Origin: a virus | Lineage: Duplodnaviria; Heunggongvirae; Uroviricota; Caudoviricetes | Length of the DNA stretch: 64,000 nucleotides | Direction: 5' to 3' (one strand) | Virus record (IMG/VR): IMGVR_UViG_3300031999_000011 | Shown: in pieces, positions 3,209-61,989 of the stretch | How the letters are laid out: each line of letters opens with the position of its first letter | Position numbering within the stretch: position 1 is the stretch's first letter | Translations under genes and position numbers: made by a program | Notes under the pieces: generated by a model | The model's database searches: none | Told to the model about the DNA's origin: nothing | What the model saw: the letters and a program-made list of their open reading frames with translations, nothing else

Positions 3209-4387
3209 GTGGACTGTATGGAAGTCTTTATCTGTGGTGGTGCTGTTCGTGACGTAATCATGGGTCACGAACCAAAAGACATTGATTTTGTGGTCGTAGG
3301 TTCAACTCCTGCAGAAATGATTGCAAATGGTTTTAAACAAGTAGGTGTAGATTTTCCTGTGTTTTTGCATCCTAAGACTGGTGAAGAGTGGGCACTCGCA
3401 AGAACAGAGAGGAAAATCTCAGTTGGTTATAACGGTTTTACATGTGAGACAACTGATGTCACGTTGATACAAGACTTGTCACGCAGAGATTTATCTTGCA
3501 ACTCAATGGCTGTTAGAATCGAAGATTGGGCAGAATTCAAAAACACTAAAAGTGCGCATTTGGTTATAGATCCATTTTGGGGTCAAGCTGATATACATTG
3601 TGGTATATTGATTCATACCAGCGAAGCTTTTTCAGAAGACCCAATTCGGGTACTTCGTGTATCTCGCTTCGCTGCGAGGTACAACTTTGCTGTTGCACCT
3701 GAAACAATGCAGTTGATGTCTGATATCGTACATGAACTTGATCATGTACCAACAGAACGAATCTGGATGGAGTTTGAAAAAGGCTTGATGGAAGATCATT
3801 CACATAGGATGATTGAGGTCTTGCATGAAGTTGGTGCATTTCACGTTAAAGTCATGCAACCATTTAATCGTGCTCCTGATATGTGGCAACGTCCAAGTAG
3901 ATCTGATGTTTTGAAAAAAGCTGTTCATATTAAACATTTGCCATCCAGATTTGCTTTGATTGGTACAGGGTTTACAAAAGATGAATTTAAAACACACCGT
4001 ATTCCAAATGACTGTGCTGATATAAGTTTAATTATTAACAAACACGTTGAACGTTTGGCATTTTTTCATGTTTTTAATAAAGCTCAAAGATTGAATATTA
4101 TAATGGAATTGAGGGCAATACAACGACCTGTTGCATTTTTAAATCAGGTGTTTGATGTAGTAGATATATTGTTTGATGTGGATTGTACCATACATCGTGA
4201 TAAATTTTTTCAAGATATTAAAGATATTTCAAGAGTTGATGCTGCAGTTGTTGCTGAAAAAGCTAAAAAAGCATTTAACCCAAATGATATTTGGAGCTTA
4301 GGTACAACAATACAGAATGCAATCTTTAATGCAAGATTGGACATGATGGATGTTGATAAGCGTAATTGGGTAGTATCTGGTCAGTAA
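3209..4387 (+). CDS. cca: tRNA nucleotidyltransferase (CCA-adding enzyme) / poly(A) polymerase family
   Basis: N-terminal FICGGAVRDVIMG...KDIDFVV (GGxVRD...DxD class II nucleotidyltransferase head), RRD, ~390 aa. Confidence 0.85.
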   Translation: MDCMEVFICGGAVRDVIMGHEPKDIDFVVVGSTPAEMIANGFKQVGVDFPVFLHPKTGEEWALARTERKISVGYNGFTCETTDVTLIQDLSRRDLSCNSMAVRIEDWAEFKNTKSAHLVIDPFWGQADIHCGILIHTSEAFSEDPIRVLRVSRFAARYNFAVAPETMQLMSDIVHELDHVPTERIWMEFEKGLMEDHSHRMIEVLHEVGAFHVKVMQPFNRAPDMWQRPSRSDVLKKAVHIKHLPSRFALIGTGFTKDEFKTHRIPNDCADISLIINKHVERLAFFHVFNKAQRLNIIMELRAIQRPVAFLNQVFDVVDILFDVDCTIHRDKFFQDIKDISRVDAAVVAEKAKKAFNPNDIWSLGTTIQNAIFNARLDMMDVDKRNWVVSGQ

Positions 4388-4436
4388 TATAAATATAAAC
4401 AATAAATGGATGTAAAACTTATAGGAGGTAATTAAT

Positions 4437-4511
4437 ATGAAATGGGAAACACCAAGTTATAAAGACTTACGATTCGGATTCGAAATAACAATGTATATAT
4501 ATCATCGATAA
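4437..4511 (+). CDS. PqqA-like 24-aa peptide (MKWETPSYKDLRFGFEITMYIYHR)
   Basis: Strong SD TAGGAGG 8 nt upstream; about half the residues match canonical PqqA [23 protein letters not shown], including W, P, DLR, G, the E-x3-Y pair, I and terminal R. Confidence 0.5.
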   Translation: MKWETPSYKDLRFGFEITMYIYHR

Positions 4512-4513
4512 TT

Positions 4514-4909
4514 GTGAAATATTTATTGATAATATTAGTATTATTATGTACTAGTTGTGCTGACTACCCATATTATGGAGGATACGGAGGTGGATATCCT
4601 TATTATTCAGGATACGGCGGATATCCATATTATCGATCATATGGTGGATACCCGTATTATCGATCATATGGTGGATACCCGTATTATCGATCATATGGTG
4701 GACACGGTGGTGGATACGGTGGATACAGAGGAGGCTACTACAGTGGATGGAGTGGAGTACATAGTGGTGGAGGGAGTGGAGGACACGGTGGTGGATGGAG
4801 TGGAGGACACGGTGGTGGATGGAGTGGAGGACACGGTGGTGGATGGAGTGGAGGACACGGTGGTGGATGGAGTGGAGGACACGGTGGTGGATGGAGTGGG
4901 CATCGTTAA
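4514..4909 (+). CDS. Gly/Tyr-rich secreted repeat lipoprotein (GGYPYY(R)SY and GGHGGGWSG repeats)
   Basis: GTG start 2 nt after the PqqA-like stop; signal peptide with LLCTSC lipobox; two nested 30-bp tandem repeat arrays. Confidence 0.6.
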   Translation: MKYLLIILVLLCTSCADYPYYGGYGGGYPYYSGYGGYPYYRSYGGYPYYRSYGGYPYYRSYGGHGGGYGGYRGGYYSGWSGVHSGGGSGGHGGGWSGGHGGGWSGGHGGGWSGGHGGGWSGGHGGGWSGHR

Positions 4910-4956: not shown

Positions 4957-5229
4957 TTGCAATTTTTAGAAAATATCTTTAATATAGAGTATCACTATTC
5001 ATATAGTGATGTTTTATATTTGGAGATATATGTTATGAATTATTCTGATGATGCCACGAAAGTGGATATGTCTTATCCAATTTCTGTAAATGATATAGAA
5101 GATATACACCATACAAGAATTGCAATAACTGCATATTATAAGGCGGAAAAACGAAACTTTACACCTGGTCATGAACTTAATGATTGGCTGATTGCTGAAA
5201 AAGAATGTGATGTGTTTAGATATATTTAA
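4957..5229 (+). CDS. DUF2934-like small protein (AYYKAEKRNF..G....DWLIAEKE motif)
   Basis: C-terminal motif nearly identical to the C-terminus of the hydroxylase at 46483..47430. Confidence 0.5.
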   Translation: MQFLENIFNIEYHYSYSDVLYLEIYVMNYSDDATKVDMSYPISVNDIEDIHHTRIAITAYYKAEKRNFTPGHELNDWLIAEKECDVFRYI

Positions 5230-13035: not shown

Positions 13036-13110
13036 GACGTGTTGGTATAGTGGTTGTTGCCCTGGTCTGCAAAACCAGTGAGAAGGGTTCAATTCCCTTA
13101 CACGTCTCCA
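13036..13110 (+). tRNA. tRNA-Cys (GCA), encoded CCA
   Basis: Acceptor GACGTGT/ACACGTC; anticodon stem CTGGT/ACCAG with loop CTGCAAA; T-arm AAGGG-TTCAATT-CCCTT; 3' T-CCA. Confidence 0.8.
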
Positions 13111-13127
13111 AACAATAAGGGATTAAT

Positions 13128-13562
13128 ATGATACATTCAAAATCGACTACACTTTGTATTAAGAAAGCAAATAATGAAGTCACTATGACTACTAGACTTT
13201 CGCAAATTACTAGTCTGTTAACAGATTATAATATTGTTTACGGTCGTAAAACTTTACGAGAAATCAATGAAATTCTTCAAGGTATACCCGATAATGGATA
13301 TTTAGATTATGAAATATTTGAATCAGTTGAACCTATGAATATGGATTTACATTATCATGATGATCTTGAAGCCCGAGTTATTACAACCGGGTTAGGTACG
13401 TTTTTGTTTCCAAGTGATGATGCTGTAATTGAATTACAAGTATCAGCTGGTGATTATATTGTTATTCCAGGTAAAATGAAACATAGTTTTAAAACCCCTG
13501 GTAATCTTGCTGCCATTCGATTGTTTACAAATTATGATGGTTATATTGCTAATTATGTATAG
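13128..13562 (+). CDS. cupin-fold protein (two-motif cupin, acireductone-dioxygenase-like)
   Basis: HYHDDLEARVITTGLG (H.H...E......G) and GDYIVIPGKMKHSF (G.....P.G..H) cupin motifs. Confidence 0.55.
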   Translation: MIHSKSTTLCIKKANNEVTMTTRLSQITSLLTDYNIVYGRKTLREINEILQGIPDNGYLDYEIFESVEPMNMDLHYHDDLEARVITTGLGTFLFPSDDAVIELQVSAGDYIVIPGKMKHSFKTPGNLAAIRLFTNYDGYIANYV

Positions 13563-13666
13563 AGTTTATTTTGAACAAATAAATTAATATGGTAAAAAAA
13601 TTACAAATTTAAGTTGATTTATTGTTATAAATATACTACAATATAATATAATAAATTGACTTAGAG

Positions 13667-14107
13667 GTGTTTATGATCACAATATATCCATATAAGCTAC
13701 CTGGTAGCTCGTATATGATGATTGATAGAACAGGGATTGAAGTTCCAGGTCTTGATGTTTGGGTGTTTGATGATGAACAGCACGGATTACATCAAGAAGC
13801 TCTTATTTCTGGTACAGATGAAGTTATTGAATTTGTAACTAAAGACATACCAGATGCTGAAAAAGGCTTTAAATTAATATTCAGTGATGAAATGTTTGAA
13901 AATTATCAATTAGTTGGATATTGGTACAAAGCAGGTTATGCTAAGGGACCTTGGGCTAGTGATATTAAAGGTAATTGGTATCTTTGGAATTTACCATTTC
14001 AAAATAATCCAAAAATATATGGTTGGTTGTGCCCAGCGTTGTTTTTATATTTTGAAACTGCTCCATCAAAATTATATATCAGAGTTGAACCTATTAAACC
14101 TAAATAA
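13667..14107 (+). CDS. hypothetical protein
   Basis: 146-aa ORF. Confidence 0.5.
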   Translation: MFMITIYPYKLPGSSYMMIDRTGIEVPGLDVWVFDDEQHGLHQEALISGTDEVIEFVTKDIPDAEKGFKLIFSDEMFENYQLVGYWYKAGYAKGPWASDIKGNWYLWNLPFQNNPKIYGWLCPALFLYFETAPSKLYIRVEPIKPK

Positions 14108-14136
14108 TTAATATAAGTCAAATATAGGGATATAAT

Positions 14137-14667
14137 ATGAAACTTGATGAATTAATTGCACAAACATTACCATTACCATATACATGGATAAACGATCATA
14201 CTGCTACATTCGAATTTAAAGGTATTACCTTTATAATAGCATTAGCACCAACAGATCCTATCAAATTTGAAAAACAGAAAGATGGGTTGCGAGGCTTACA
14301 TATTGCATTCGGGATTGCAACACGACATGATTCAGACGGAACATATGATTTAAATACTGAATTAACCGGATTACATAATGCACGATTAGTTATTGCGACA
14401 GTAACATATGCTATTATTGATAAACTTAATAGTATATCATCATTGTATGATTTTATAGCTATAGTATCTAAAAATGATGCAGCGATGTCATCAAGAACTA
14501 AAATTTATCGAGCCGCGGTTATTGACGTAACAGATCATTTAACTCGTATGGGATATCAGTATACATATCAGTTAAAAAATGAGTTAGGAGCTGGTGTTTT
14601 CTTAATCTCAAAAATAGAATTAACACAATGGCAAGCTCAATTTATTGCTAAATTTCATTGTTCTTGA
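14137..14667 (+). CDS. hypothetical protein
   Basis: 176-aa ORF. Confidence 0.5.
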   Translation: MKLDELIAQTLPLPYTWINDHTATFEFKGITFIIALAPTDPIKFEKQKDGLRGLHIAFGIATRHDSDGTYDLNTELTGLHNARLVIATVTYAIIDKLNSISSLYDFIAIVSKNDAAMSSRTKIYRAAVIDVTDHLTRMGYQYTYQLKNELGAGVFLISKIELTQWQAQFIAKFHCS

Positions 14668-14704
14668 ATAATATAAGTAAATTAAAATGGATTTAAGAAA
14701 TTAA

Positions 14705-15049
14705 ATGCGAGTTTTAAAATTTGTTCAATTAGATGACGATTTAGTACCTATATCTGAAATAATTAATGTTGATATATCACAAATAATTACTGAAACTGTT
14801 TTAGTGTTATTAAAAAACGGTAAGATATATACCATCGTTGGACATCCGGCTCTTGAGATTATTTGGAGACTTAAACCTTCAGCATTAGAGGGAAATAGAT
14901 GTATAATATGGAAAAAACATATGTGGGCAGTACATAATATAATAGCTCATCCTCTTATGCAGATATTTGCTTGGTTTGGTGCGTATGATTTAGCTATTTG
15001 TATACATGATAGTACAATTCCAAAACCTATTGGATATAAAACATATTAA
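14705..15049 (+). CDS. hypothetical protein
   Basis: 114-aa ORF. Confidence 0.45.
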   Translation: MRVLKFVQLDDDLVPISEIINVDISQIITETVLVLLKNGKIYTIVGHPALEIIWRLKPSALEGNRCIIWKKHMWAVHNIIAHPLMQIFAWFGAYDLAICIHDSTIPKPIGYKTY

Positions 15050-15055
15050 CGTATT

Positions 15056-15445
15056 ATGAATAATGTATCACTATTAGTATTAATTGCATTGTTTATACTT
15101 AAACATTTTGTTATTGATTTTTTTTTAGAAACTCCTTATCAATCTAATAATAAACATATATTAGGTCATTTAGGAGGTATATTGCATGCACAGTTACATA
15201 GTTTTACATCTTGGGTAATATTAGGATTTACATTTAACTTCTTTATACCTATAGTTGTGGTAGCTGTGGTAGCTGAATTTTTTATTCATTATTTTATTGA
15301 TTTAGTTAAAACAAATTTATGTGTATTATATAAATGGCAGTATAATACTCAAAAAGGGTTTTGGTATATGTTAGGTGCTGATCAAGCACTTCATTATTTG
15401 ACGTATATTGCGATGATATATTATATTATTACACATATTAATTAA
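15056..15445 (+). CDS. integral membrane protein (tandem paralog A, DUF3307-like His-rich TM protein)
   Basis: LKHFVIDFFLETPYQSNNKHILGHLGGILHAQLHSFTSWVILGF; 3-4 predicted TM segments. Confidence 0.55.
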   Translation: MNNVSLLVLIALFILKHFVIDFFLETPYQSNNKHILGHLGGILHAQLHSFTSWVILGFTFNFFIPIVVVAVVAEFFIHYFIDLVKTNLCVLYKWQYNTQKGFWYMLGADQALHYLTYIAMIYYIITHIN

Positions 15446-15449
15446 AATT

Positions 15450-15821
15450 GTGAACACTACATTATTGATTGTAATCGGACTTTTTACGATTAAACACTTT
15501 ATTATGGATGTTTTGTGTCAAACACCATATCAATTTCAACATAAACATATATTAGGACATCCAGGTGGAATTATCCACACATCATTACACGCATTTACGT
15601 CTTGGTTAATACTAGGATTTATATTTGGGTTTTTAACTCATGTAGTTGTAATTGCCGTTATATTTGAGTTTTTTGCTCATTATTTTATAGATTTTTTTAA
15701 AAGAAATTTCACATTAATGCATAAATTAACTCCAGCTGATTTGAACTATTGGTACGTATCAATATTTGATCAATTATTACATTATTTAACATATTTTTGT
15801 ATGATTTATTATATAATATAG
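15450..15821 (+). CDS. integral membrane protein (tandem paralog B)
   Basis: IKHFIMDVLCQTPYQFQHKHILGHPGGIIHTSLHAFTSWLILGF; about 55% identity to the previous ORF. Confidence 0.55.
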   Translation: MNTTLLIVIGLFTIKHFIMDVLCQTPYQFQHKHILGHPGGIIHTSLHAFTSWLILGFIFGFLTHVVVIAVIFEFFAHYFIDFFKRNFTLMHKLTPADLNYWYVSIFDQLLHYLTYFCMIYYII

Positions 15822-15979
15822 TGGCATTATAATTAGAAATAATGTATAATGTACTTAGAATTTAAGTTATAACAATTTTATGAATTATTTAAAAACTTTT
15901 GAATATATAATATGTTTTGAAGATAATTTAATTTAATTTAATTTAATTATATAATATTTTAAATATTTGGAGATAAATT

Positions 15980-16249
15980 ATGAATTACTATAATGTTAGT
16001 TTAGCAATTAGCGGATATGCATTTATGCGACGTATCAGTTATGAGTTGTATGATACATGTAATAAACTAATTAATGATGCACGTTCCCGTTATCGTTATA
16101 CCACAATTATATTAAATGGTATGGAATATGATGTAATATCATATGGTTATGGTTTTTACATTGCAGTAGCTGAACCAACATATAACCACCGTTTATCAAA
16201 TGTTAATCGTAGCAGTATTGAGTGCAATCATATTGTGGCCGAACAATAA
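15980..16249 (+). CDS. hypothetical protein
   Basis: 89-aa ORF. Confidence 0.4.
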   Translation: MNYYNVSLAISGYAFMRRISYELYDTCNKLINDARSRYRYTTIILNGMEYDVISYGYGFYIAVAEPTYNHRLSNVNRSSIECNHIVAEQ

Positions 16250-16276
16250 AATAATTCAATATATGATGATACGATA

Positions 16277-16510
16277 ATGTCAATTCAAGAATTTTTAGAT
16301 AGTTGTAATGATACAGTTGATATTGATAATTCATTCACTTTAAGTTGGTCCAAAGAAGGTGTCGGATTTGGTGAGTTTCGGTTTTATAAAAGTGAAGACG
16401 AGGCAATTCATATTAATAATGAATGTATGGGAAAGAATTTTATTAAAAATGTATTATGTAATATGGTTGATATTGCTATTTTAGATGATCCCTACGAAAA
16501 AATTGAATAG
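16277..16510 (+). CDS. hypothetical protein
   Basis: 77-aa ORF. Confidence 0.4.
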   Translation: MSIQEFLDSCNDTVDIDNSFTLSWSKEGVGFGEFRFYKSEDEAIHINNECMGKNFIKNVLCNMVDIAILDDPYEKIE

Positions 16511-16526
16511 GTTAAAATAATTATTA

Positions 16527-16814
16527 ATGCGAAATATAAACAATATATCTGTTAAACTTGACAAAGAATGTTATTGTCCTGTATGTAATTGTAAAATCAA
16601 TGCAGCTACAGCATTAGATGGTAGTGGTGTAGTACCTAATGCTGGAGATGTAAGTATGTGTGTCATGTGTTCTGCATATTTAAAATATTCAGATGATTTA
16701 ACTCTCCGTGAGCTAACAGTTGATGAACTGGTTGATTTACCAGATGATATATTATATGTGCTAACTAAAACACGTAGTATATTTAAAAATATAAGTGGCA
16801 ATAAAAACTGTTAA
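16527..16814 (+). CDS. small Cys-rich (zinc-binding?) protein
   Basis: CYCPVCNC...CVMC. Confidence 0.4.
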   Translation: MRNINNISVKLDKECYCPVCNCKINAATALDGSGVVPNAGDVSMCVMCSAYLKYSDDLTLRELTVDELVDLPDDILYVLTKTRSIFKNISGNKNC

Positions 16815-16911
16815 TTGATAAGTTATATAGGAGAATAATTATGATTAAATTATAAATTGTCTACCATTGATAAATACAATTTTTTTCTAATTTCGTTTAA
16901 AGTGACTTAAA

Positions 16912-17556
16912 ATGTTTATATTTGATATATCTAGCCTCATAATAGGGGCAATGTTTGGCGGTATTTGGGCATCTATATTCTCAACTATGTTTATTGCTGC
17001 GGTAATTTTATTAACCGCTACTGATGAATTTTGGTGGTCATATGGATCATTATTATTGTATACTGTAATATTAGCAATATTTACACCAGCTAATCCGTTT
17101 TTATATATTTGGCACAATCCACTAAGCTCTATCGAAATTTTTATTGGATATTTTATAATAGGTGCCGTTTTTGCTTTATTAAAGTACTGGTCTTTTATAC
17201 AAAGGGTTGTACAGAAAATAAAAGATTTTAAGAAACAATTTATTATTGATAATAAACTTGAAATATCTACAATTGATGAAATACCAGAAGAGTATAAAAA
17301 ATTATGGAATAGTTATAAATCACAGAAGTTATCAAGTTCAGAATTACATAAAATTAATAATGGTTTACGTCCGAGTAATAACTCAGCACTTATTATGAAT
17401 TGGATTGCATGGTGGCCATTTGTGGCTGTAGGGTTATTTGTTGCAGATCCATTAAGAAAGTTGGTTAAAGCAATATACGAACATCTAGTTTCCACCTTTG
17501 GGAAAATGTATGAACATATTGTTACAAAAAACATCAATATGACAGACTTAAAATAA
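16912..17556 (+). CDS. integral membrane protein
   Basis: Five or more hydrophobic segments in the N-terminal 170 aa. Confidence 0.55.
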   Translation: MFIFDISSLIIGAMFGGIWASIFSTMFIAAVILLTATDEFWWSYGSLLLYTVILAIFTPANPFLYIWHNPLSSIEIFIGYFIIGAVFALLKYWSFIQRVVQKIKDFKKQFIIDNKLEISTIDEIPEEYKKLWNSYKSQKLSSSELHKINNGLRPSNNSALIMNWIAWWPFVAVGLFVADPLRKLVKAIYEHLVSTFGKMYEHIVTKNINMTDLK

Positions 17557-17573
17557 CATATGAGGAAGATTTA

Positions 17574-17744
17574 ATGTTAGAAGATATAGTGTTAGATATA
17601 TGTGGTGCACTTGGGTTAATTGTATGTGGTGTAATTGGTATTGGTGTGTTTGCAGCATGTATTGCATTCCCGTGGATCCTAGGTATTGTAGGTGCAATAT
17701 CAATTAATGCAGTGATAGAAAACGATGAATCATTAGTACTTTAA
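17574..17744 (+). CDS. small membrane protein (56 aa)
   Basis: SD GAGGAAG upstream; two hydrophobic helices with GxxxG-like spacing. Confidence 0.35.
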   Translation: MLEDIVLDICGALGLIVCGVIGIGVFAACIAFPWILGIVGAISINAVIENDESLVL

Positions 17745-17768
17745 TACTTAAGTTTATACGAATAAGTA

Positions 17769-17978
17769 ATGCAAAACGAATCAATTGATTATCCAGTAGC
17801 TTCAGCAAATAAACCATATCGAGTGACAGCATATCATTATACCCGTAATAATAACCGTAGTTTTATCGTTGGAGATTATCGCTGGTATTGGCAAGCTAAT
17901 TTAGTATCTTGGTGGTGGCATCAACTAGGATGGGGTTGTAACACATGGAAAAAATACAACAACATTTCTGAAGCTTAA
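17769..17978 (+). CDS. hypothetical Trp-rich protein
   Basis: 69-aa ORF. Confidence 0.35.
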   Translation: MQNESIDYPVASANKPYRVTAYHYTRNNNRSFIVGDYRWYWQANLVSWWWHQLGWGCNTWKKYNNISEA

Positions 17979-18082
17979 GATCTATTATTGATCAAATAAT
18001 AGGTCATCAAATTGCTGAAGAAATTTGGGGTGGCTCAATTACTCGTAAACCACGTATATTACCAACTATTAAGGTAACAAAA

Positions 18083-18478
18083 ATGGAACAATATTTGATA
18101 GATGATTATGGAGTTATTGAAAGTGAACAATATCTTCAACGAGTTGAAGATATAGAGCCTTATTTTGAAAATTGTAGTGAGGGTATGTTTGATTGTGGTC
18201 GAGGATATTATCAAGATGAAATTTACCGTTTTGTAAAAATTGGTGATAAGTTTTATAATGTACGCATTACAGCAGTAATATATAATCACAAGCAAGATCG
18301 TGGTGCTGAATTATACTATGTAAATTCAATTGCTGATGTTACATATAACGAAATTGATAAACCATTACCGATTCTAAAAAAATTGATTAATTTGGAGGTA
18401 GCAATATCTGATTCACGATTAGCAGAATTGAAAGAGTGGTTAGATACACACGGTGTAGAATATAGTAATTTTGCATAA
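18083..18478 (+). CDS. hypothetical protein
   Basis: 131-aa ORF. Confidence 0.5.
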   Translation: MEQYLIDDYGVIESEQYLQRVEDIEPYFENCSEGMFDCGRGYYQDEIYRFVKIGDKFYNVRITAVIYNHKQDRGAELYYVNSIADVTYNEIDKPLPILKKLINLEVAISDSRLAELKEWLDTHGVEYSNFA

Positions 18479-18627
18479 GATTTAATTTGATTTTTACTTA
18501 AAATGGATATATAATATCTTTATGTTGTTAAACAGGAGGAGTTATATGGATATAACATAGATTTAACTAAAATACATTTTGTCTTTTAGTTAAATTACAT
18601 GTGTCGAATTTGTATAAATAAAGAATT

Positions 18628-18702
18628 GGTAGATGAGCTAGTTTGGAATAGCGTGCGCCTGAAGAGCGTGAGAATAAGGTTCGAATCCTTGATCTACCAC
18701 CA
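18628..18702 (+). tRNA. tRNA-Phe (GAA), encoded CCA
   Basis: Acceptor GGTAGAT/ATCTACC; D-arm GCTA-GTTTGGAA-TAGC; anticodon loop CTGAAGA; T-loop TTCGAAT; A-CCA. Confidence 0.8.
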
Positions 18703-18710
18703 GAATTAAT

Positions 18711-18786
18711 TGGGCTATAGTGTAATTGGAAACACCTCACACTTTGACTGTGATATTGTTCGGTTCGAGTCCGGCTAGCCCTACCA
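18711..18786 (+). tRNA. tRNA-Gln (TTG), encoded CCA
   Basis: U1 start as in bacterial tRNA-Gln; D-arm GTGT-AATTGGAA-ACAC; anticodon stem TCACA/TGTGA with loop CTTTGAC; T-loop TTCGAGT; 1:72 U-U mismatch. Confidence 0.7.
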
Positions 18787-18858
18787 CTTTTAAAAAGATA
18801 AATAAGTAGATACACTAAAAGTAGTGGTTAAAATATAATATACGTAGGAGATTGTATA

Positions 18859-19245
18859 ATGATAAAATTAATATTTATAGCACTATTATGTGTTTTTGTT
18901 ACAGGTTGTGCATCAATGAGCAATTGGACGCCAACAGTTGATACATATAACGATAGACGTGCATCTCATATCCCGCAAGATCAAGCAGAGTGCAGACAAT
19001 TAGCATCTCAAGCATCTGGTGGAACAGTTAAAGAAACCTTTACCGGTGCAGGTGTAGGAGCATTAATAGGTGCAGCAGGTGGAGCAATCGCTGGAGCGTT
19101 TATCGGAAATCCAGCAACTGGTGCAGCGATTGGTGCTGCTGCAGGTGGTTTTGGTGGTGGTGCTGGATTGGGCTTCAACGCCGAGAACAATTATAAACAA
19201 TCATACAAAGTTTGTATGAGACACAGAGGTCATACAGTAATTTAG
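18859..19245 (+). CDS. OsmB/SlyB-like glycine-zipper outer-membrane lipoprotein
   Basis: Lipobox FVTGCAS; GAGVGALIGAAGGAIAGAFIGNPATGAAIGAAAGGFGGG glycine zipper; paralog of 33194..33673. Confidence 0.65.
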   Translation: MIKLIFIALLCVFVTGCASMSNWTPTVDTYNDRRASHIPQDQAECRQLASQASGGTVKETFTGAGVGALIGAAGGAIAGAFIGNPATGAAIGAAAGGFGGGAGLGFNAENNYKQSYKVCMRHRGHTVI

Positions 19246-19258
19246 TATGAAAAATTAT

Positions 19259-19336
19259 GCGCTCGTAGCTCAATTGGATTAGAGCATAGGATTTCTAATC
19301 CTATGGTTGGAGATTCGAATTCTCTCGAGCGTGCCA
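19259..19336 (+). tRNA. tRNA-Arg (TCT), encoded CCA
   Basis: Acceptor GCGCTCG/CGAGCGT; anticodon stem TAGGA/TCCTA with loop TTTCTAA; T-arm GGAGA-TTCGAAT-TCTCT; G-CCA. Confidence 0.8.
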
Positions 19337-19353
19337 AACATTAAAAGAATTAT

Positions 19354-19431
19354 GTCCATGTAGCTCAATTGGATTAGAGCATCGGTCTACGAAACCGAAG
19401 GTTATCCGTTCAAATCGGATCATGGATACCA
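19354..19431 (+). tRNA. tRNA-Arg (ACG), encoded CCA
   Basis: Acceptor GTCCATG/CATGGAT; anticodon stem TCGGT/ACCGA with loop CTACGAA; T-arm ATCCG-TTCAAAT-CGGAT; A-CCA. Confidence 0.8.
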
Positions 19432-19472
19432 AATGGTAAAAAAATGATATATAATATATCTTAATGAATAAT

Positions 19473-19548
19473 GCAGGTGTAGCTCAATGGGTAGAGCGCC
19501 GTCCTTCCAAGTCGGATGTTGCAGAATCGTCCTCTGTCACCTGCTCCA
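19473..19548 (+). tRNA. tRNA-Gly (TCC), encoded CCA; atypical T-loop ATCGTCC
   Basis: Acceptor GCAGGTG/CACCTGC; anticodon loop CTTCCAA; one mismatch in the anticodon stem; A54/U58 instead of T54/A58. Confidence 0.65.
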
Positions 19549-19555
19549 ATTTTAT

Positions 19556-19631
19556 GCTTCGTTAGCTCAATGGGTAGAGCACTGCATTGTCACTGCAGAG
19601 GCAGCGGGATCATAGCCCGCACGAGGCGCCA
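19556..19631 (+). tRNA. tRNA-Asp (GTC), encoded CCA; atypical T-loop ATCATAG
   Basis: Acceptor GCTTCGT/ACGAGGC; anticodon stem CTGCA/TGCAG with loop TTGTCAC; T-stem GCGGG/CCCGC; G-CCA. Confidence 0.7.
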
Positions 19632-19663
19632 AATATAATGTAATTATATCAATTAAATGATTT

Positions 19664-19885
19664 ATGAAATTTCACAAACTTGAAGTATACGTTTTCGATT
19701 TTGAAGAAGGTGATAATATTAAAGATATTATCGTTGAAATTGAACAAAATCGACATTTTAATATGGAAGTTAAAGCTCATCAAACAGTTGATATTGGTGA
19801 ATGGGATGATGATCATGAATTAAATCTAACACGCACTTCATTAGAACAGTTTAGAGCGTATTTTGAAAAGAATAATGTCGGGTGA
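19664..19885 (+). CDS. hypothetical protein
   Basis: 73-aa ORF lying between tRNA genes. Confidence 0.4.
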   Translation: MKFHKLEVYVFDFEEGDNIKDIIVEIEQNRHFNMEVKAHQTVDIGEWDDDHELNLTRTSLEQFRAYFEKNNVG

Positions 19886-19922
19886 TACTCATGTGAATCC
19901 GTGAGTCTGGTTATAATTAAAT

Positions 19923-20000
19923 GGGCCTGTATCCCAATTGGTAAGAGGACACCGGCTTAGACCCGGTGTGTTGGAGATTCGAATTCTCTCAGGCCTACCA
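19923..20000 (+). tRNA. tRNA with anticodon TAG (Leu, reads CUA) but class-I short variable loop; encoded CCA
   Basis: Acceptor GGGCCTG/CAGGCCT; 3-bp D-stem; anticodon stem ACCGG/CCGGT with loop CTTAGAC; variable GTGTT; T-arm GGAGA-TTCGAAT-TCTCT; A73-CCA. Confidence 0.6.
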
Positions 20001-23157: not shown

Positions 23158-23355
23158 ATGTGTAAAAAATTACAAATTATAAGTTTAGTTGTAGTATATA
23201 GTATTTGGCCTCAGGTTACCAGTGCAGAAACAGGTGTTACACATGATAGAAATAAAACAGGTTCATATAAACGAATGGATCCGCTAACCTCTTTTTTTGG
23301 TGGACTCGGGTTAATTGGTATCGGTATGTGGATGAACCACAAAAATAAAGTTTAA
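23158..23355 (+). CDS. small secreted/membrane protein
   Basis: SD TAGGAGG upstream; signal-peptide-like N-terminus. Confidence 0.4.
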   Translation: MCKKLQIISLVVVYSIWPQVTSAETGVTHDRNKTGSYKRMDPLTSFFGGLGLIGIGMWMNHKNKV

Positions 23356-24509
23356 TAATATACTCGTTTATGTGGAGTTTTATATACTAACGCACCTTGT
23401 GCATTCGGTTCTTTTCGTGAATTATATAATTTATGAGGACAAAAACCAACCATTGATTTAGGATGTATTCGCATTTTATATAACGATATAATAGCATCAC
23501 TAAATGTATGTCCACTAACAACATTATCATCGATAAAAATTATATCTTTGTCTTGTAGTTGAGAAGCAATATGTTTTACAGCTAATTGAAAATTGTAAAA
23601 CCCTCTATCTCGATCTCCTCCTACTGGTGCTATTGCATTGTGAATACTAAATCTTGAATTTTCTAACCTATCAGTTGCTGTAGCTAATTCATTTTCAGCT
23701 TTAGTCAATTCTCTGTGAGTCATATCTAATTCTTCTATAGTATCAAAATCAGCATTATTTAATCTAACTATATGTTGTTTTAAGTGTGCAATAGTATTTT
23801 GTAATTCTTTTAACCGATTATGAGGACTAATTGATCTATCAGCTGCAGTATCATGTTCTTCACCTTTTACACCTCTAGGTTCATATATACCACCCGTATA
23901 CACATAGTTAGATAATCGAGGCCAATGGTTCTTCAAAAATGCACCATGTATAATATTAATATTACTCAAATATTCAGAAATTATATTAGCAAATTGTTTA
24001 ACTACAGGTGAACTTGATGATAATGTAACTAATACTACTTGGTTGTGTTCATCTGGGTGTATTTTATTATTGTGTAATCTTACAAACATTTTTTGAATTG
24101 CAGCATATTGTTTATCACGTGAAGTGCGTTGTTCAGGTTTTGGTAGTATATGTGATATTACTTTTTTTAATCCCACTCTTACAAATTTTTCAATTTCCGC
24201 ATCCGACATAGTATGATTCGTATTTCGTTTTTTAATAGCATCCATTAACCCAGTTGTATGTTCTTGATTTTCCCAACCTATAGGAGTTTTATCTAATGAA
24301 TATGCATGTAATACAGGAATACTTGCAGGTGGTTTGAGTAGGTTATATCTATTAAACAACATTAATTCTTCTTTTTGCAAATTGATTTGCACAGTATGAA
24401 TACCTGTTTTGTATTCTTTAGCATTTAATGTACCGGGTTCATCAAATTCATGAGCATATGTACCGTCTGCTAATTGCCGTTTAATCGTTTTAATTTCAGT
24501 TAATAACAT
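23352..24509 (-). CDS. phosphoribosyltransferase (type I PRTase) domain protein with inserted coiled-coil region
   Basis: C-terminal PRPP-binding loop IIFIDDNVVSGHTF; earlier VVLVTLSSSSPVV hood-like segment; minus strand, convergent with the NADAR gene. Confidence 0.6.
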   Translation of the reverse strand: MLLTEIKTIKRQLADGTYAHEFDEPGTLNAKEYKTGIHTVQINLQKEELMLFNRYNLLKPPASIPVLHAYSLDKTPIGWENQEHTTGLMDAIKKRNTNHTMSDAEIEKFVRVGLKKVISHILPKPEQRTSRDKQYAAIQKMFVRLHNNKIHPDEHNQVVLVTLSSSSPVVKQFANIISEYLSNINIIHGAFLKNHWPRLSNYVYTGGIYEPRGVKGEEHDTAADRSISPHNRLKELQNTIAHLKQHIVRLNNADFDTIEELDMTHRELTKAENELATATDRLENSRFSIHNAIAPVGGDRDRGFYNFQLAVKHIASQLQDKDIIFIDDNVVSGHTFSDAIISLYKMRIHPKSMVGFCPHKLYNSRKEPNAQGALVYKTPHKRVYY

Positions 24510-25103: not shown

Positions 25104-25949
25104 ATGTTTGATTCACCAGTTGTACCAAAATCGTTTTTTATGAATGTTGGAGAGAACTCAGCAAATATTGCATTGAGTTTAACTGTAGCAAAAGAGAAAG
25201 TGATAGTACGTATAACAGGTGGTTGTGGATATATGAGTGTAGAAGATGCTAATGGGTTGTATGATCTATATAGTCAAGCGTTTAGTGGATTTAACGGTGT
25301 GATGTTGTTTGGTGGTACTCGTATGGTTAGCAGGATAGACCGAAATACGGTCATTCCAGGTATAACTGAAGTTGTTCCTCGTATTAAGCATGAAAATCCA
25401 GGTTGTGTTGTTTTAGGAGTTGTTCCAAGAACAGAGGATGTTAAACTGGATACAACTTATGGGTTTATTATTTCAGACGATAATAACCCGTGGATAACTA
25501 TTCCACATCCAGATCAAGATTTTTTTGTAATTGTACAACGTTCAGTAGATCAATCAGCTGATTGGAATGATGAATGGCAAGAATGTTATAATGTAACAAA
25601 ACGATTACGAACCTATTGTGATTGGACTTCATTATTAATTGCATATAATGGCGGTGGAGTTACTGAAAAAGAAATACTTACAATTGCAGCAGCTGGTTGG
25701 CCTGTATTGTTGGTTAATGGTGGAGGTAGGAAAACAGATGAGTATGCTGCAAATGAAGAATTTTTAGCAGCACATCCAAATGTAAGAGTATGTGAAAAAA
25801 ATGTAAGAGATTTTAGAAATACATTGATTGAAATGGGTATACTACTTGGGTTTAGGAAATCTTTAAATCTACAAGTAGTAAATGGTGGTAAAATTAATTT
25901 AAGAGAGTATATTAATTATGAACATAACAGCACAAACAGTAATAAATAA
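25104..25949 (+). CDS. LOG/SLOG-like Rossmann-fold protein (tandem paralog A)
   Basis: RITGGCGYMS (compare LOG GGGxxGxMG) and LLVNGGGRKTDE (compare LOG PGGxGTxxE). Confidence 0.55.
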   Translation: MFDSPVVPKSFFMNVGENSANIALSLTVAKEKVIVRITGGCGYMSVEDANGLYDLYSQAFSGFNGVMLFGGTRMVSRIDRNTVIPGITEVVPRIKHENPGCVVLGVVPRTEDVKLDTTYGFIISDDNNPWITIPHPDQDFFVIVQRSVDQSADWNDEWQECYNVTKRLRTYCDWTSLLIAYNGGGVTEKEILTIAAAGWPVLLVNGGGRKTDEYAANEEFLAAHPNVRVCEKNVRDFRNTLIEMGILLGFRKSLNLQVVNGGKINLREYINYEHNSTNSNK

Positions 25950-26694
25950 GTCGGGTAAAGTTGATTTATTTGTATCAGAAAGCAGTGGAGTTTTACCTGC
26001 TAATTATATGTTAGTGGCAACAAAAGCTAAGTCAAAAGTTGCACTACGTATTGCAGGTGGTTGTAAAAATATGAGTGAGCAAGATAAGTTAGATATGCTT
26101 GATTTTTTTGCTACCGCTTTAATTGGATATTCAGGTGTTCTTTTTTCTGGAGCGACTCGACAATTAACAGCTGATGGTTTACTGGATCCAATGGTGACTG
26201 ATGTTCCTGGTTATGTTGCTCAAAAAAATGATGGTATAATTGCATTAGGTACAGCACCACGCACTGATGCTTGGTCATTACAAGGTGAATCTGCATTTAT
26301 ATTAGATGGATATGGTACAAGACCAAACCCAACAATGGATGCTATTTTATTAGTACAAGATGGTCCTGATGCAACATTAGATTGGGATGGAGATGTACCA
26401 GTTTATTTGAAAATTATGGAATCTTGGAGAAGTTATGCTGGTTTTGAACATGTTGGTTTAATTTCGTGGAACGGTGGCGCAGTCACAGAAGCTGAATTTA
26501 GAGCTACTGCTAACCGTAAATGGCCTACCATATTAATACAAGGTTCTGGTCGTGCTACTGATGATGCTATTCAAGCAATAGTAGGAGAATTACCGGGTGC
26601 GTTACAAGGTGATCATGTATATGTTGTTGATAAGTCTGATCCATTAGCATTACGACAACTTTTAATCGATAATGGTTTTATATTAATTATTTAG
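25918..26694 (+). CDS. LOG/SLOG-like Rossmann-fold protein (tandem paralog B)
   Basis: RIAGGCKNMS and ILIQGSGRATDD; overlaps paralog A by 32 nt; same length and architecture. Confidence 0.55.
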   Translation: MNITAQTVINKSGKVDLFVSESSGVLPANYMLVATKAKSKVALRIAGGCKNMSEQDKLDMLDFFATALIGYSGVLFSGATRQLTADGLLDPMVTDVPGYVAQKNDGIIALGTAPRTDAWSLQGESAFILDGYGTRPNPTMDAILLVQDGPDATLDWDGDVPVYLKIMESWRSYAGFEHVGLISWNGGAVTEAEFRATANRKWPTILIQGSGRATDDAIQAIVGELPGALQGDHVYVVDKSDPLALRQLLIDNGFILII

Positions 26695-46482: not shown

Positions 46483-47430
46483 ATGTTAGATTTAATTATG
46501 CAAATTGTGATCGGTTATATCCGGTCTATTTCTGTTTCAAGTAACTTGATGATTGTAGTGATATTAATAGTATTTTCAATATTATTAGTATACGAAACAT
46601 TACATCCTAGAGAAAAATATCCAACAAAAAACTTATATCAATCATATAAAACAAATATTGGTATGTTTATTGTTAACACCATAATTTTGTCTGTATTATC
46701 TGCATCATCGTTACTATTATTAGTTGATGTACATTCATATAATGGAATATTTAACTTTATAACCAATAATAATGTTAAAATTATAGTGTCATTCTTATCA
46801 TTAGATTTATTGTTGTATTATTGGCATAGAATCTGTCATGAGTATGATAGGTTATGGATGTTTCATAGAGTACATCATAATGATTCATATTTAAACGTAT
46901 CAACTGCATTTCGTGTACACTTTATTGAATTATTTTTTACAAATGTATTAAAAGTAGTATTTGTAACAATAATAGGTATTAATGGGTTTATATTATTAAT
47001 ACATGAATTGATAACTATTTTATTTGTTATGGTTCATCACACTAATGTTAGTATTAAATATGAAAATATATTAAGTAAATTATTTATTGGGCCATCACTA
47101 CATCAAACACATCACTCTATGAATAGAGAGGAACATGATAGTAATTATGGTGCGATATTTTCTTTTTGGGATAGAGTGTTTGGAACATTATTAGAGACAA
47201 GTACAGTTAAAATTGGTATTAAAGGGTATTCTCCACAAAGTCTTATAAATTTAATAAGTTTTGGTTTTACTACCCCTGTTATACAACTGAAAAAACCTAC
47301 AATTGCAATAGAAGATATGATACGAGTGGCAGCGTATTATAGGGCAGAAAAACGTGGTTTTATTCACGGAAATGACCAATATGATTGGTTTATTGCAGAA
47401 CGTGATATTCATAATACAATAATTGTGTAG
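46483..47430 (+). CDS. fatty-acid hydroxylase superfamily (sterol desaturase / C4-methyl oxidase-like di-iron membrane oxygenase) fused to a C-terminal DUF2934-like motif
   Basis: His boxes HRICHE, HRVHHN, HHTNV, HQTHHS on a four-TM scaffold; C-terminal AAYYRAEKRGF.HG....DWFIAERD; strong SD AAGGAG. Confidence 0.75.
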   Translation: MLDLIMQIVIGYIRSISVSSNLMIVVILIVFSILLVYETLHPREKYPTKNLYQSYKTNIGMFIVNTIILSVLSASSLLLLVDVHSYNGIFNFITNNNVKIIVSFLSLDLLLYYWHRICHEYDRLWMFHRVHHNDSYLNVSTAFRVHFIELFFTNVLKVVFVTIIGINGFILLIHELITILFVMVHHTNVSIKYENILSKLFIGPSLHQTHHSMNREEHDSNYGAIFSFWDRVFGTLLETSTVKIGIKGYSPQSLINLISFGFTTPVIQLKKPTIAIEDMIRVAAYYRAEKRGFIHGNDQYDWFIAERDIHNTIIV

Positions 47431-52090: not shown

Positions 52091-52504
52091 ATGAAAAAAA
52101 TGATAATAGTTATGAGAACTGATCTTAATATGAGATGTGGAAAGCAAATTATCCAAGGTGCGCACTGTGCAGTTAATGTTATTTTACAACAAGGTGAGAT
52201 TTTATCACATAACAATGAAATGGGTATTTTTATACCATTAACAGCCGATTTAACTGAATGGTTAAATGGTGATACGTTTGAGTTATTTAATGGTAAGTAT
52301 ACCAAAATAACTGTCGGAGTAAATTCAGAAGATGAAATAATTGATCTTTGTAGACAAGCTGATTTTGCAAGTATTAATTATAAAATTACAACAGATTTAG
52401 GACTTACTGAATTTCACGGTATTCCGACTATTACAAGTTGTGCAATAGGTCCTGCCGATGTAGATGAAATTGATAAAATAACTGGTCATTTAAAATTATT
52501 ATAA
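52091..52504 (+). CDS. peptidyl-tRNA hydrolase, PTH2 family
   Basis: KMIIVMRTDLNMRCGKQIIQGAHCAVNV matches the PTH2 signature KMVLVVRTDL.MGKGKIAAQC.HA. Confidence 0.8.
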   Translation: MKKMIIVMRTDLNMRCGKQIIQGAHCAVNVILQQGEILSHNNEMGIFIPLTADLTEWLNGDTFELFNGKYTKITVGVNSEDEIIDLCRQADFASINYKITTDLGLTEFHGIPTITSCAIGPADVDEIDKITGHLKLL

Positions 52505-57259: not shown

Positions 57260-57985
57260 ATGAGTATAAGAGATAATTTAGGAAATCGTATGAAAAAATA
57301 TGAAACTGTTCATACTAATTTTTTAATGCGTAGAACACCTGTAATAATTCGTATTGATGGTAAGGCTTTCCATACATGGACGAGAAATTGTGAGCAACCA
57401 TTTGATGAAATGTTACACGAATCAATGAAAGCTACTATGCGTTTTTTAGTTAATGAAATGCAAAATGCAGTTTATGGATATACTCAAAGTGATGAGATTT
57501 CAATTCTATTATGCGATTGGTTGACATTTACTACTGAACAATGGTTTGATGGTAATATTCAAAAAATTGCATCTGTATCAGCTAGCCTTGCAACAGGTAT
57601 ATTTAACGCAATTCCAAACAATCATACCTCGCAACTTGCGTTTTTTGATGCACGGGTTTTTAATGTACCTTTTGCTGATGTACATAATTATTTCTTGTGG
57701 AGACAACAAGACGCTACTCGAAATTCAATTCAAACATACGCACGTGCTTACTTTTCTCATAAAGAGTTACACAAAAAATCTTGCAATGAAATTCAACAAA
57801 TGTTGTTTGAACAACATGGTGTAAACTGGAATGATTTAGATGTTTGGAAAAAACGTGGTTCACATGTTTATCGAGTACCTGATGAAGTACAAGGTGGTAC
57901 TTGGATGTATCATACTGAAATGCCAATTATTAATAAAGACTTCGCCGCGTTTGGACCCATAAATACATATTTAAAAATGGAGTAA
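57260..57985 (+). CDS. tRNA-His guanylyltransferase (Thg1) / Thg1-like 3'-5' polymerase
   Basis: IIRIDGKAFHTWT (compare VVRLDGRNFHRF), YGYTQSDEISIL (AYGQSDEYSFV), YFLWRQQDATRNSI (YLSWRQADCHINNL). Confidence 0.85.
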   Translation: MSIRDNLGNRMKKYETVHTNFLMRRTPVIIRIDGKAFHTWTRNCEQPFDEMLHESMKATMRFLVNEMQNAVYGYTQSDEISILLCDWLTFTTEQWFDGNIQKIASVSASLATGIFNAIPNNHTSQLAFFDARVFNVPFADVHNYFLWRQQDATRNSIQTYARAYFSHKELHKKSCNEIQQMLFEQHGVNWNDLDVWKKRGSHVYRVPDEVQGGTWMYHTEMPIINKDFAAFGPINTYLKME

Positions 57986-61086: not shown

Positions 61087-61989
61087 ATGTCAGATATTAA
61101 TAAACATTTAGGGCAAGTTTCGCAATATAGTTCAACATATTCACCAGATATTTTAGTACGTGAGAGTCGGTTGTTGAATCGGGAGGCACACTATGTAGAT
61201 TCAGATTCGTTTGTTGGTTATGATGTGTGGAATTTATATGAAGTTTCAGCATTAACTGATAATGGACTACCAGTTGTAGGGTTCGGTAAACTAATATACT
61301 CTGCTTCTAGTAAGTATATTGTTGAATCAAAATCTTTGAAATTGTACTTTTTTAGTTACAATATGGAGAAACTGTGGAGAAATACTGATGATGTTATTGA
61401 TACGATGGAACGACAAGTAGTTATTGATTTGTCATCATTACTTGAAACACCTGTTCAATTTAAGTTCTTTCACGCAAATGATAATCATATACCATATGCT
61501 CCATTTCAACTAACAGAAGATAGCAAAATACCATGTAAATTTAAAAATATTGATAATATTGATGGTGTTGAAGATATTAAATTTGTCGATTTTAAAGAAA
61601 ATAAAGATTTGTTAAAAGTTGAATATAATGATAAATTATGTTATAATGCTATAACATCTTGTTTTTTAAGATCGAATTGTCGCATAACTCATCAACCAGA
61701 TTGGGGGGACATTTATGTTTATTATAGAGGTGATTATCAATTAGATGAATTATCTTTTATTAAGTACATTGTTAGTTTTAGAAATGAATTCCACTTTCAT
61801 GAAGAGGTTTGTGAAATGATATATGCTGTATTATATAACATACTACAACCTAAAGAATTACTCGTAGGTTGTTTGTATACTCGGCGAGGGGGTTTAGATA
61901 TAAATCCTATACGAGCAACTCATACTTTTTTATTAGATTCTGGATTAATTGATATTAACACTGTTGTACAAAAAACAACAAGACAATAA
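61087..61989 (+). CDS. queF: NADPH-dependent 7-cyano-7-deazaguanine (preQ0) reductase, bimodular YqcD-type QueF
   Basis: Colinear with E. coli QueF: GYDVWNLYEVS, VESKSLKLYFFSY (E(S/L)K(S/A)LK(L/Y)(Y/F) QueF motif), SNCRITHQPDWGDIYVYYRG (catalytic Cys in NC.ITHQPDW), YIVSFRNEFHFHEEVCE, YTRRGGLDINP. Confidence 0.9.
   Translation: MSDINKHLGQVSQYSSTYSPDILVRESRLLNREAHYVDSDSFVGYDVWNLYEVSALTDNGLPVVGFGKLIYSASSKYIVESKSLKLYFFSYNMEKLWRNTDDVIDTMERQVVIDLSSLLETPVQFKFFHANDNHIPYAPFQLTEDSKIPCKFKNIDNIDGVEDIKFVDFKENKDLLKVEYNDKLCYNAITSCFLRSNCRITHQPDWGDIYVYYRGDYQLDELSFIKYIVSFRNEFHFHEEVCEMIYAVLYNILQPKELLVGCLYTRRGGLDINPIRATHTFLLDSGLIDINTVVQKTTRQ

Follow-up and report, generated by a model that had tools for sequence, protein, structure and literature searches.

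A stand-alone pqqA gene in a large, tRNA-rich probable phage and its recurrence in unrelated viruses

The 64,000-nucleotide (nt) stretch of the IMG/VR virus record IMGVR_UViG_3300031999_000011, called here the window, contains a 24-codon open reading frame (ORF) whose product resembles PqqA, the precursor peptide of pyrroloquinoline quinone (PQQ). The question raised by this locus is what a virus could do with the precursor of a cofactor when none of the genes that process it, pqqB to pqqE, is found beside it. We consider it likely that the phage carries in this ORF a working stand-alone pqqA, which it took over from a gammaproteobacterial (most probably Methylococcales) lineage and which would feed precursor to the PqqBCDE enzymes of the host for its PQQ-dependent methanol dehydrogenase. 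The original prediction, made from the letters of the window alone, had offered an auxiliary gene feeding a host PQQ pathway as one of two possibilities, the other being a leader for a different peptide of the kind made by ribosomes and modified after translation (RiPP). The profile match, the conservation and the recurrence of the orphan gene make the first of these the best-supported reading. Coordinates refer to the whole window, on the + strand unless stated otherwise. The gene and its main landmarks are:

4437..4511, + strand: pqqA, with ATG start, 24 codons and stop, encoding the peptide MKWETPSYKDLRFGFEITMYIYHR
4423..4428, + strand: Shine-Dalgarno core AGGAGG, 8 nt 5' of the pqqA ATG
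4482..4496, + strand: codons Glu16-Ile-Thr-Met-Tyr20 within pqqA, the Glu-x3-Tyr pair

Judged by its sequence, this ORF is a real gene encoding a bona fide member of the PqqA family. The peptide was matched by the NCBIfam PqqA equivalog model TIGR02107 with 41.9 bits (E 5.9e-11, curated cut-off 20) and by Pfam PF08042 with 43.1 bits (E 3.7e-11, cut-off 21.1). The first 10 kilobases (kb) contain 141 ORFs of at least 20 amino acids and about 900 are expected in the 64 kb; after correction for this number the match is still far above chance. With a start codon, a stop codon and a ribosome-binding site of its own, the ORF has the format of PqqA, a short ribosomal peptide of about 20 to 40 residues, and the AGGAGG hexamer in front of it is found only seven times in the whole window, this site included. 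The PqqA residues W3, P6, R12, G14, E16 and Y20 are all present, and at the level of sequence so is the leader pattern W-x-x-P ... R-x-G that is recognised by PqqD. By our own count 11 of 23 positions are shared with the Klebsiella PqqA quoted in the original prediction, which had described a likeness at about half of the positions, Glu-x3-Tyr pair included, and a strong ribosome-binding site; both descriptions hold, and the profile search that had been proposed as a check came out well above both cut-offs. All 26 representative viral and bacterial peptides that we aligned match TIGR02107, and positions W3, P6, R12, G14, F15, E16, T18, M19 and Y20 are invariant among them. A sequence search of the PDB with the peptide gave no match. 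An interpretation of the region as an RNA element was dropped, the folding of 4388-4540 having a z of -0.38 and the Rfam matches being tRNAs only.

None of the processing enzymes could be recognised near the gene, in agreement with what had been predicted for the 64 kb. When PqqB, PqqC, PqqD and PqqE of Acinetobacter (taken from locus L002, see below) were used as tblastn queries, no E value better than 0.1 was obtained in the window and flanking loci; the same queries do recover a pqq operon, which served as positive control. In 30 ORFs that were larger or lay nearby, and in 67 others with a minimum of 80 amino acids (the latter giving 22 matching families in total), Pfam searches returned no Lactamase_B-type PqqB, PqqC, PqqD, Radical_SAM or SPASM domain. 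The motif CxxxCxxC was found in none of the long ORFs of the window, and one occurrence near the window end was ruled out as a radical S-adenosylmethionine (SAM) gene, as it sits in a 63-codon ORF. Nor were pqqB-E domains among the precomputed Pfam calls for the flanks, which were inspected over about 10 kb to each side. The inspected stretch free of pqqB-E is therefore about 84 kb (window plus about 10 kb per side), and over this distance pqqA stands as the orphan precursor that had been predicted, lacking the adjoining pqqBCDE that is typical of PqqA.

Orphan copies of this kind were found repeatedly among viruses. A tblastn search of a phage collection with the peptide returned 12 records: nine isolate phages of Methylophilales, one uncultured podovirus and two that are mislabelled bacterial DNA. 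One record, "Acinetobacter phage MD-2021a" (L002, CAKLQF020000010.1, 102204-114275), was discarded as a phage because it is bacterial chromosome (fur, ppk, pqqA-E, dipeptidase). The nine isolates, cultured phages belonging to several groups, are Melnitz (four genomes), Venkman, P19250A, MEP301, MEP401 and MEP402, and pqqB-E are absent alongside pqqA in all nine genomes. The gene is unannotated in the five isolate records with annotation that we inspected (Melnitz, P19250A, Venkman, MEP301 and MEP402; none is shown for MEP401), and in Melnitz a "hypothetical protein" is annotated over it on the opposite strand. The same holds for the window, where none of the metagenome gene calls around the locus includes pqqA. 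The probable reason is that gene callers skip ORFs under 30 codons. The ORFs located in isolate phages, all of them complete, are:

L001, 6001-6075 (76134-76208 of Melnitz, MZ577097): pqqA
L009, L010 and L011, approximately 4001-4069 in each: pqqA
L013, 624-692: pqqA

A much larger number was obtained from IMG/VR with a degenerate DNA pattern for RFGFE[IV]TMY, for which by our own estimate about 0.1 chance matches are expected. At least 120 contigs were recovered, and the 120 listed all carry complete PqqA-like ORFs of 22-29 residues. Another 47 contigs, some of them 171-372 kb long, were obtained with a second pattern, written for the WETP subtype, and bring the total of orphan pqqA in IMG/VR to at least 167 contigs. 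In none of the 167 viral loci listed (1.39 Mb examined) was pqqB-E found, whereas of 120 bacterial loci for this peptide type, retrieved by a pattern of like design, 82 have pqqB-E adjoining pqqA. Across the viral contigs as many as 18 distinct nucleotide sequences specify a single peptide, and the pooled ratio of nonsynonymous to synonymous polymorphism (pN/pS), calculated for codons outside the search pattern, is about 0.5. Relatives of the window phage are not among these 167 loci, which, one distant match aside, share no gene with the window besides pqqA. An orphan pqqA thus recurs in many unrelated phages, where it is under selection, and is the viral norm. Nor is pqqA in jumbo phages confined to the window: L287, L292, L278 and L041 of IMG/VR (372, 372, 172 and 356 kb) also have an orphan copy, which is of the WETP subtype in the first three.

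The close relatives of the window tell how the gene is kept in its own lineage. Contigs from five samples (ENA, JGI and Logan) are nucleotide-identical across pqqA and differ only in the number of repeats downstream, indicating that the phage is widespread; this identity is uninformative on selection. More divergent relatives were sought with the neighbouring gene as an anchor:

3218..4387, + strand: CCA-adding tRNA nucleotidyltransferase, upstream neighbour of pqqA (Pfam PolyA_pol and PolyA_pol_RNAbd; phrog_2244, E 2e-88)

The anchor protein used, P0001, is 100% identical over 389 amino acids. In one relative, L310, the CCA enzyme has 71% protein identity to that of the window and is followed downstream by a pqqA gene with the peptide MKWETPSYKDLRFGFEVTMYIYNR. 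The two pqqA genes differ by 9 nt, which amount to seven synonymous codons and two conservative replacements (I17V and H23N). Because synonymous changes dominate in this way, pqqA is under purifying selection in the lineage. The original prediction had named loss of E and Y in related phages, or a broken ORF, as signs against it: E16 and Y20, invariant among the 26 representatives, are both kept in L310, and the ORF is intact there, in the sole divergent relative whose contig reaches the site. No relatives of the CCA enzyme were found in IMG/VR, and none of 50,697 phage records was matched in a megablast search with the first 12 kb of the window.

The peptide also points to a host. The nearest bacterial sequence, MKWETPSYTDLRFGFEVTMYIYNR, is identical at 21 of 24 positions to the PqqA of the window and at 23 of 24 to that of L310. 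It was found in 30 loci of species-representative genomes, and all of those with a genus or family name belong to the Methylococcales (Methylobacter, Methylovulum, Methylomicrobium, Crenothrix and Methylococcaceae metagenome-assembled genomes); a variant with T7 and K9 belongs to Cycloclasticus and relatives. Furthermore, a peptide identical to that of L310 adjoins pqqBCDE on the JGI contig Ga0315283_10035503 (L346), which has 85-90% nucleotide identity to metagenome-assembled genomes of Methylococcales. The close identifiers of this contig (Ga0315283) and of the window-phage contig (Ga0315290) suggest that both come from the same study. The host is most likely a gammaproteobacterial methanotroph of the Methylococcales.

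PQQ is made from PqqA by a short series of steps: PqqD binds the leader of the peptide, PqqE cross-links its Glu and Tyr, and proteases, PqqB and PqqC complete the cofactor. One PqqA peptide is consumed for each PQQ molecule, while the enzymes turn over. During infection the phage would transcribe pqqA, and the strong ribosome-binding site would give efficient translation. The 24-residue peptide would then be bound by the PqqD of the host, cross-linked between Glu16 and Tyr20 by its radical-SAM enzyme PqqE, and trimmed and oxidised to PQQ by host proteases, PqqB and PqqC. With one peptide spent per PQQ and the enzymes reusable, the precursor would be the only component needing continuous synthesis. 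A phage-supplied precursor could in this way sustain or raise PQQ for the periplasmic MxaF or XoxF, and so keep the energy flow of the host going as host expression declines. The psbA gene of cyanophages is an analogous case in which a single component, limiting or of high turnover, is resupplied.

The literature offers several points of contact with this mechanism. The Glu and Tyr residues are those reported as cross-linked in PqqA (according to Barr et al. 2016), and the steps of PQQ biosynthesis are as outlined by Koehn et al. 2019 and Zhu & Klinman 2020. In methylotrophs several pqqA copies stand alone and reach high expression levels during PQQ synthesis (PMC9851590), and overexpression of pqqA alone has been cited as raising PQQ in Gluconobacter oxydans. 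The gene also looks host-derived and selected in the virus, as expected of an auxiliary gene, with an identity of 21-23 of 24 residues to Methylococcales PqqA, seven synonymous against two conservative changes in L310 and a presence in at least 167 viral contigs.

Several observations weigh against this interpretation. Engineering studies obtained larger gains of PQQ from pqqB or from the whole operon than from pqqA, and the precursor may not be what limits PQQ synthesis in the host. The inspected 84 kb are part of a genome of at least 120 kb, so pqqB-E could lie elsewhere in the phage. Not every member of the wider group has the gene, as relatives whose CCA enzyme is 57-63% identical have no pqqA in the available DNA. 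A scan for promoters and terminators gave nothing above the shuffled background. The host assignment is thin, its basis being the 24-residue peptide together with a single co-occurring contig, and the phage, at about 30% G+C, lies far below the Methylococcales loci with their 40-50% or so.

A different role for the ORF could be sought in the gene that follows it. The original prediction had noted a Tyr/Gly-rich secreted lipoprotein 2 nt downstream, and the gene is there as described:

4514..4909, + strand: lipoprotein-like gene, with GTG start 2 nt after the pqqA stop
4589..4702, + strand: 27-nt tandem repeat, 4.2 copies, encoding GGYPYYRSY units
4743..4899, + strand: 24-nt tandem repeat, 6.5 copies, encoding SGGHGGGW octarepeats, five of them with exact HGGGW

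This gene, also called by the JGI and ENA pipelines, has no Shine-Dalgarno sequence of its own. Its product starts with a signal peptide and a lipobox-like Cys, followed by Tyr/Gly-rich and His/Gly/Trp-rich repeats. It had no match in Pfam or PHROG, and a homologue search with it found nothing, probably due to its low complexity. The copy number of the 27-nt repeat varies among otherwise identical contigs, and HGGGW is present five times in the window and two to three times in the otherwise identical contigs L003-L005. The homologue in L310 has a canonical lipobox (LLIVGC), the same 2-nt spacing after pqqA and a His/Trp/Gly-rich tail with only one HGGGW plus WNHG/WGH motifs. The two genes probably form a translationally coupled cassette. 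They also make up a conserved unit in this lineage (window and L310): the pair is kept in L310 while the flank upstream of pqqA cannot be aligned to that of the window.

It could then be argued that the 24 codons act mainly to load ribosomes for the coupled lipoprotein, the PqqA-like peptide being secondary or vestigial. The lipoprotein start at 2 nt from the pqqA stop in both genomes, in neither with its own Shine-Dalgarno sequence, would fit such a leader, as would the conservation of the pair where the upstream flank is not conserved. However, the peptide itself is under purifying selection, by the predominance of synonymous change already described, and keeps all the invariant PqqA residues. 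No lipoprotein of this type accompanies pqqA in the 167 other viral loci listed, from which it follows that the ORF would be valuable independently of this partner. Actually, translational coupling and PqqA function can coexist, and a role as leader in place of a role as precursor is unlikely.

The repeats of the lipoprotein themselves are suggestive of a link with metal. Like the octarepeat PHGGGWGQ of the prion protein (PrP), they are tandem units of eight residues with an exact HGGGW, five of them in the window protein, which is nevertheless non-homologous and a bacterial-type lipoprotein with an additional block of Tyr-rich repeats. In PrP one Cu2+ is bound per HGGGW (PMC2663819). The likeness suggests, very tentatively, a putative copper-binding lipoprotein in a phage probably of copper-dependent methanotrophs, and the comparison is weakened by the low complexity of the sequence and by the single HGGGW of the L310 homologue. 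It is just conceivable, at a similarly low level of confidence, that the cassette would serve the first two steps of methane oxidation, a copper-binding lipoprotein of the periplasm or outer membrane acting for the copper methane monooxygenase and the PQQ precursor for methanol dehydrogenase.

If the peptide does reach the enzymes of the host, it might also act there as a decoy, competing for PqqD or PqqE and blocking or diverting host PQQ synthesis. A substrate mimic that comes without enzymes formally fits an inhibitor. The cross-linked residues and the whole core are, however, the same as in functional bacterial PqqA, where an inhibitor would be expected to diverge, and phages of obligate methylotrophs depend for energy on PQQ-dependent methanol oxidation. 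In Lake Baikal, phage contigs with pqqA and contigs with methanol dehydrogenase were assigned to the same phage genome (Coutinho et al. 2020), which argues for boosting. We find inhibition an improbable role for this gene.

To about the same degree improbable is that pqqA is a passenger, a piece of recently captured host DNA without function for the phage. The identity of 21-23 of 24 residues to host-type peptides could be read in this way, and so could the absence of the gene near the CCA enzyme in the more distant relatives. Against a recent capture, the gene is kept, with mostly synonymous change, in a relative whose neighbouring gene has diverged to 71% protein identity, and no flanking host DNA or pqqB fragment was found beside it. 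It has a strong ribosome-binding site in a phage context and has been kept independently in many unrelated viral lineages.

The orphan state would be trivial if the window were bacterial chromosome or some other mobile element, and the 64 kb do lack any capsid, tail or terminase gene in Pfam and PHROG scans. Their content otherwise points to a phage. The G+C content is about 30% throughout, nearly all ORFs are on the + strand, there are eight clustered tRNA genes, most genes are small and of unknown function, and no ribosomal or housekeeping operon is present. PHROG matches were obtained for the CCA enzyme, for a Sir2 protein and to three families whose function is unknown, and the nearest phage homologues of several window proteins are in large and jumbo myophages. 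By Pfam the window encodes two SLOG-domain proteins, an SPFH protein, an R2K ATP-grasp protein, a sigma-70 factor, a zeta-toxin-like kinase and QueF; among ORFs of at least 80 amino acids, Thg1, PTH2, NADAR and a DksA/TraR zinc finger were matched, together with aspartate decarboxylase (PanD, E 7e-38), acireductone dioxygenase (ARD), a PAAR domain and T4 gp30.3. Several small lipoproteins gave Gly-zipper, alanine-zipper or Lpp-type matches. The flanks, known from identical metagenome contigs, add Ro60/TROVE, an RNA ligase, dUTPase, TelA, a TerF-like vWA protein, phosphoribosyl pyrophosphate synthetase, YqeY and a second PTH2, and the source contigs reach 120 kb. The set of CCA enzyme, Thg1, PTH2, Ro60/TROVE and RNA ligase is typical of large phages. 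A large tRNA-rich phage is the most plausible source of the window. This identity has good support but falls short of proof, as the DNA inspected contains no structural gene; a non-phage origin is more improbable still than either of the two preceding readings.

The least probable alternative is the other proposal of the original prediction, a precursor of a different RiPP modified by unrecognised phage enzymes: most window genes are without known function and could in principle hide such enzymes, but the proposal found no support, as RiPP enzyme domains, whether radical-SAM, YcaO, lanthipeptide-type or other, are absent from the 97 window ORFs scanned, no neighbouring enzyme is common to the 167 further viral loci listed, and the match is to an equivalog-level PqqA model and not to a generic leader.

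Some other features of this genome deserve mention. Functions for the maintenance of tRNA and RNA are dense, with the CCA enzyme, the eight tRNAs, PTH2, Thg1 and QueF inside the window (3218-4387, 13036-20000, 52091-52504, 57260-57985 and 61087-61989), Ro60/TROVE and RNA ligase just downstream of it (5452-8493 of L254) and YqeY upstream. A Sir2 protein, a weak PRTase-CE match and two tandem SLOG (LSDAT_prok) proteins are encoded at 1408-2121, 23352-24509 (- strand) and 25104-26694. These genes and NADAR look related to NAD or ADP-ribose and possibly participate in counter-defence. DUF2934 is found twice, as a stand-alone protein of 64 amino acids (5035-5229) just past the pqqA cassette and at the C-terminus of a fatty-acid hydroxylase (46483-47430). 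In addition, next to a CCA enzyme with 57% identity, a phage-like contig (L312, 8576-10519; L313, 5030-6973) encodes a squalene-hopene cyclase of 647 amino acids, which would be an unusual auxiliary gene, for hopanoid synthesis.

Set beside the systems already described, the peptide is closest to bacterial PqqA in its Methylococcales form, with the same length, 21 of 24 identical residues and the same W-x-x-P and R-x-G-x-E-x3-Y core (TIGR02107/PF08042). The difference is in the surroundings, since pqqB-E adjoin the bacterial gene in most loci, as counted above, while the window copy lies between the CCA enzyme and the repeat lipoprotein. The isolated pqqA copies of methylotrophs are the nearest chromosomal parallel. 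The strain described in PMC9851590 has five copies, three of them isolated, and copies in Methylovorus MP688 are treated by Ge et al. 2015. Such copies stand apart from pqqBCDE, feed one enzyme set and can be highly expressed; the window copy is viral and would act only during infection.

Viral pqqA is already known as a kind. It was reported from Lake Baikal, in T4-like phages that infect Methylophilaceae, where an auxiliary role was suggested for it alongside a viral methanol dehydrogenase (Coutinho et al. 2020, Microbiome 8:163). What those phages share with the window is a precursor without the full pathway, for which support of host methanol oxidation was proposed. They differ in the peptide, of subtype MWT[KT]P..TEMRFGFEVTMYVMNK in the Methylophilaceae phages and of the WETP/IY[HN]R type in the window. 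Furthermore, the probable host of the window phage is a methanotroph and not a methylotroph, the gene is paired with a lipoprotein, and no methanol dehydrogenase gene was seen in the window. The phages of methanotrophs that carry pmoC (Chen et al. 2020, Nat Microbiol 5:1504) are also large, low-GC, tRNA-rich freshwater phages with one component of a host energy pathway, although the gene and the step of the pathway are different. The logic in common would be to replenish whichever part is limiting or has a high turnover. Pfam scans found no pmoC in the window. The term PQQ does not occur in that paper, and in the Melnitz paper PQQ is mentioned only as a supplement of the medium. In a reservoir study of 2026, pqqA is counted with the phosphorus-cycling genes that viruses encode. 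A RiPP-mining paper that mentions PqqA and phages was discarded as a viral precedent, as it concerns bacterial PqqA co-expressed with defence systems. New here are the other peptide subtype, the presence in a different, large phage whose host is probably a methanotroph, the lipoprotein partner and the scale of unannotated orphan pqqA in viral data.

On that scale, pqqA may rank among the most widespread and yet systematically unannotated auxiliary genes in phages of bacteria that oxidise one-carbon compounds. Auxiliary genes of fewer than 30 codons are invisible to standard annotation pipelines, which is a practical warning for surveys of viral metabolism. All carbon and energy of methanotrophs and methylotrophs pass through the methanol dehydrogenases, whose cofactor is PQQ, and if the proposed role is true, a phage that resupplies the sole consumable part of the PQQ pathway would affect the turnover of methane and methanol in lakes and sediments.

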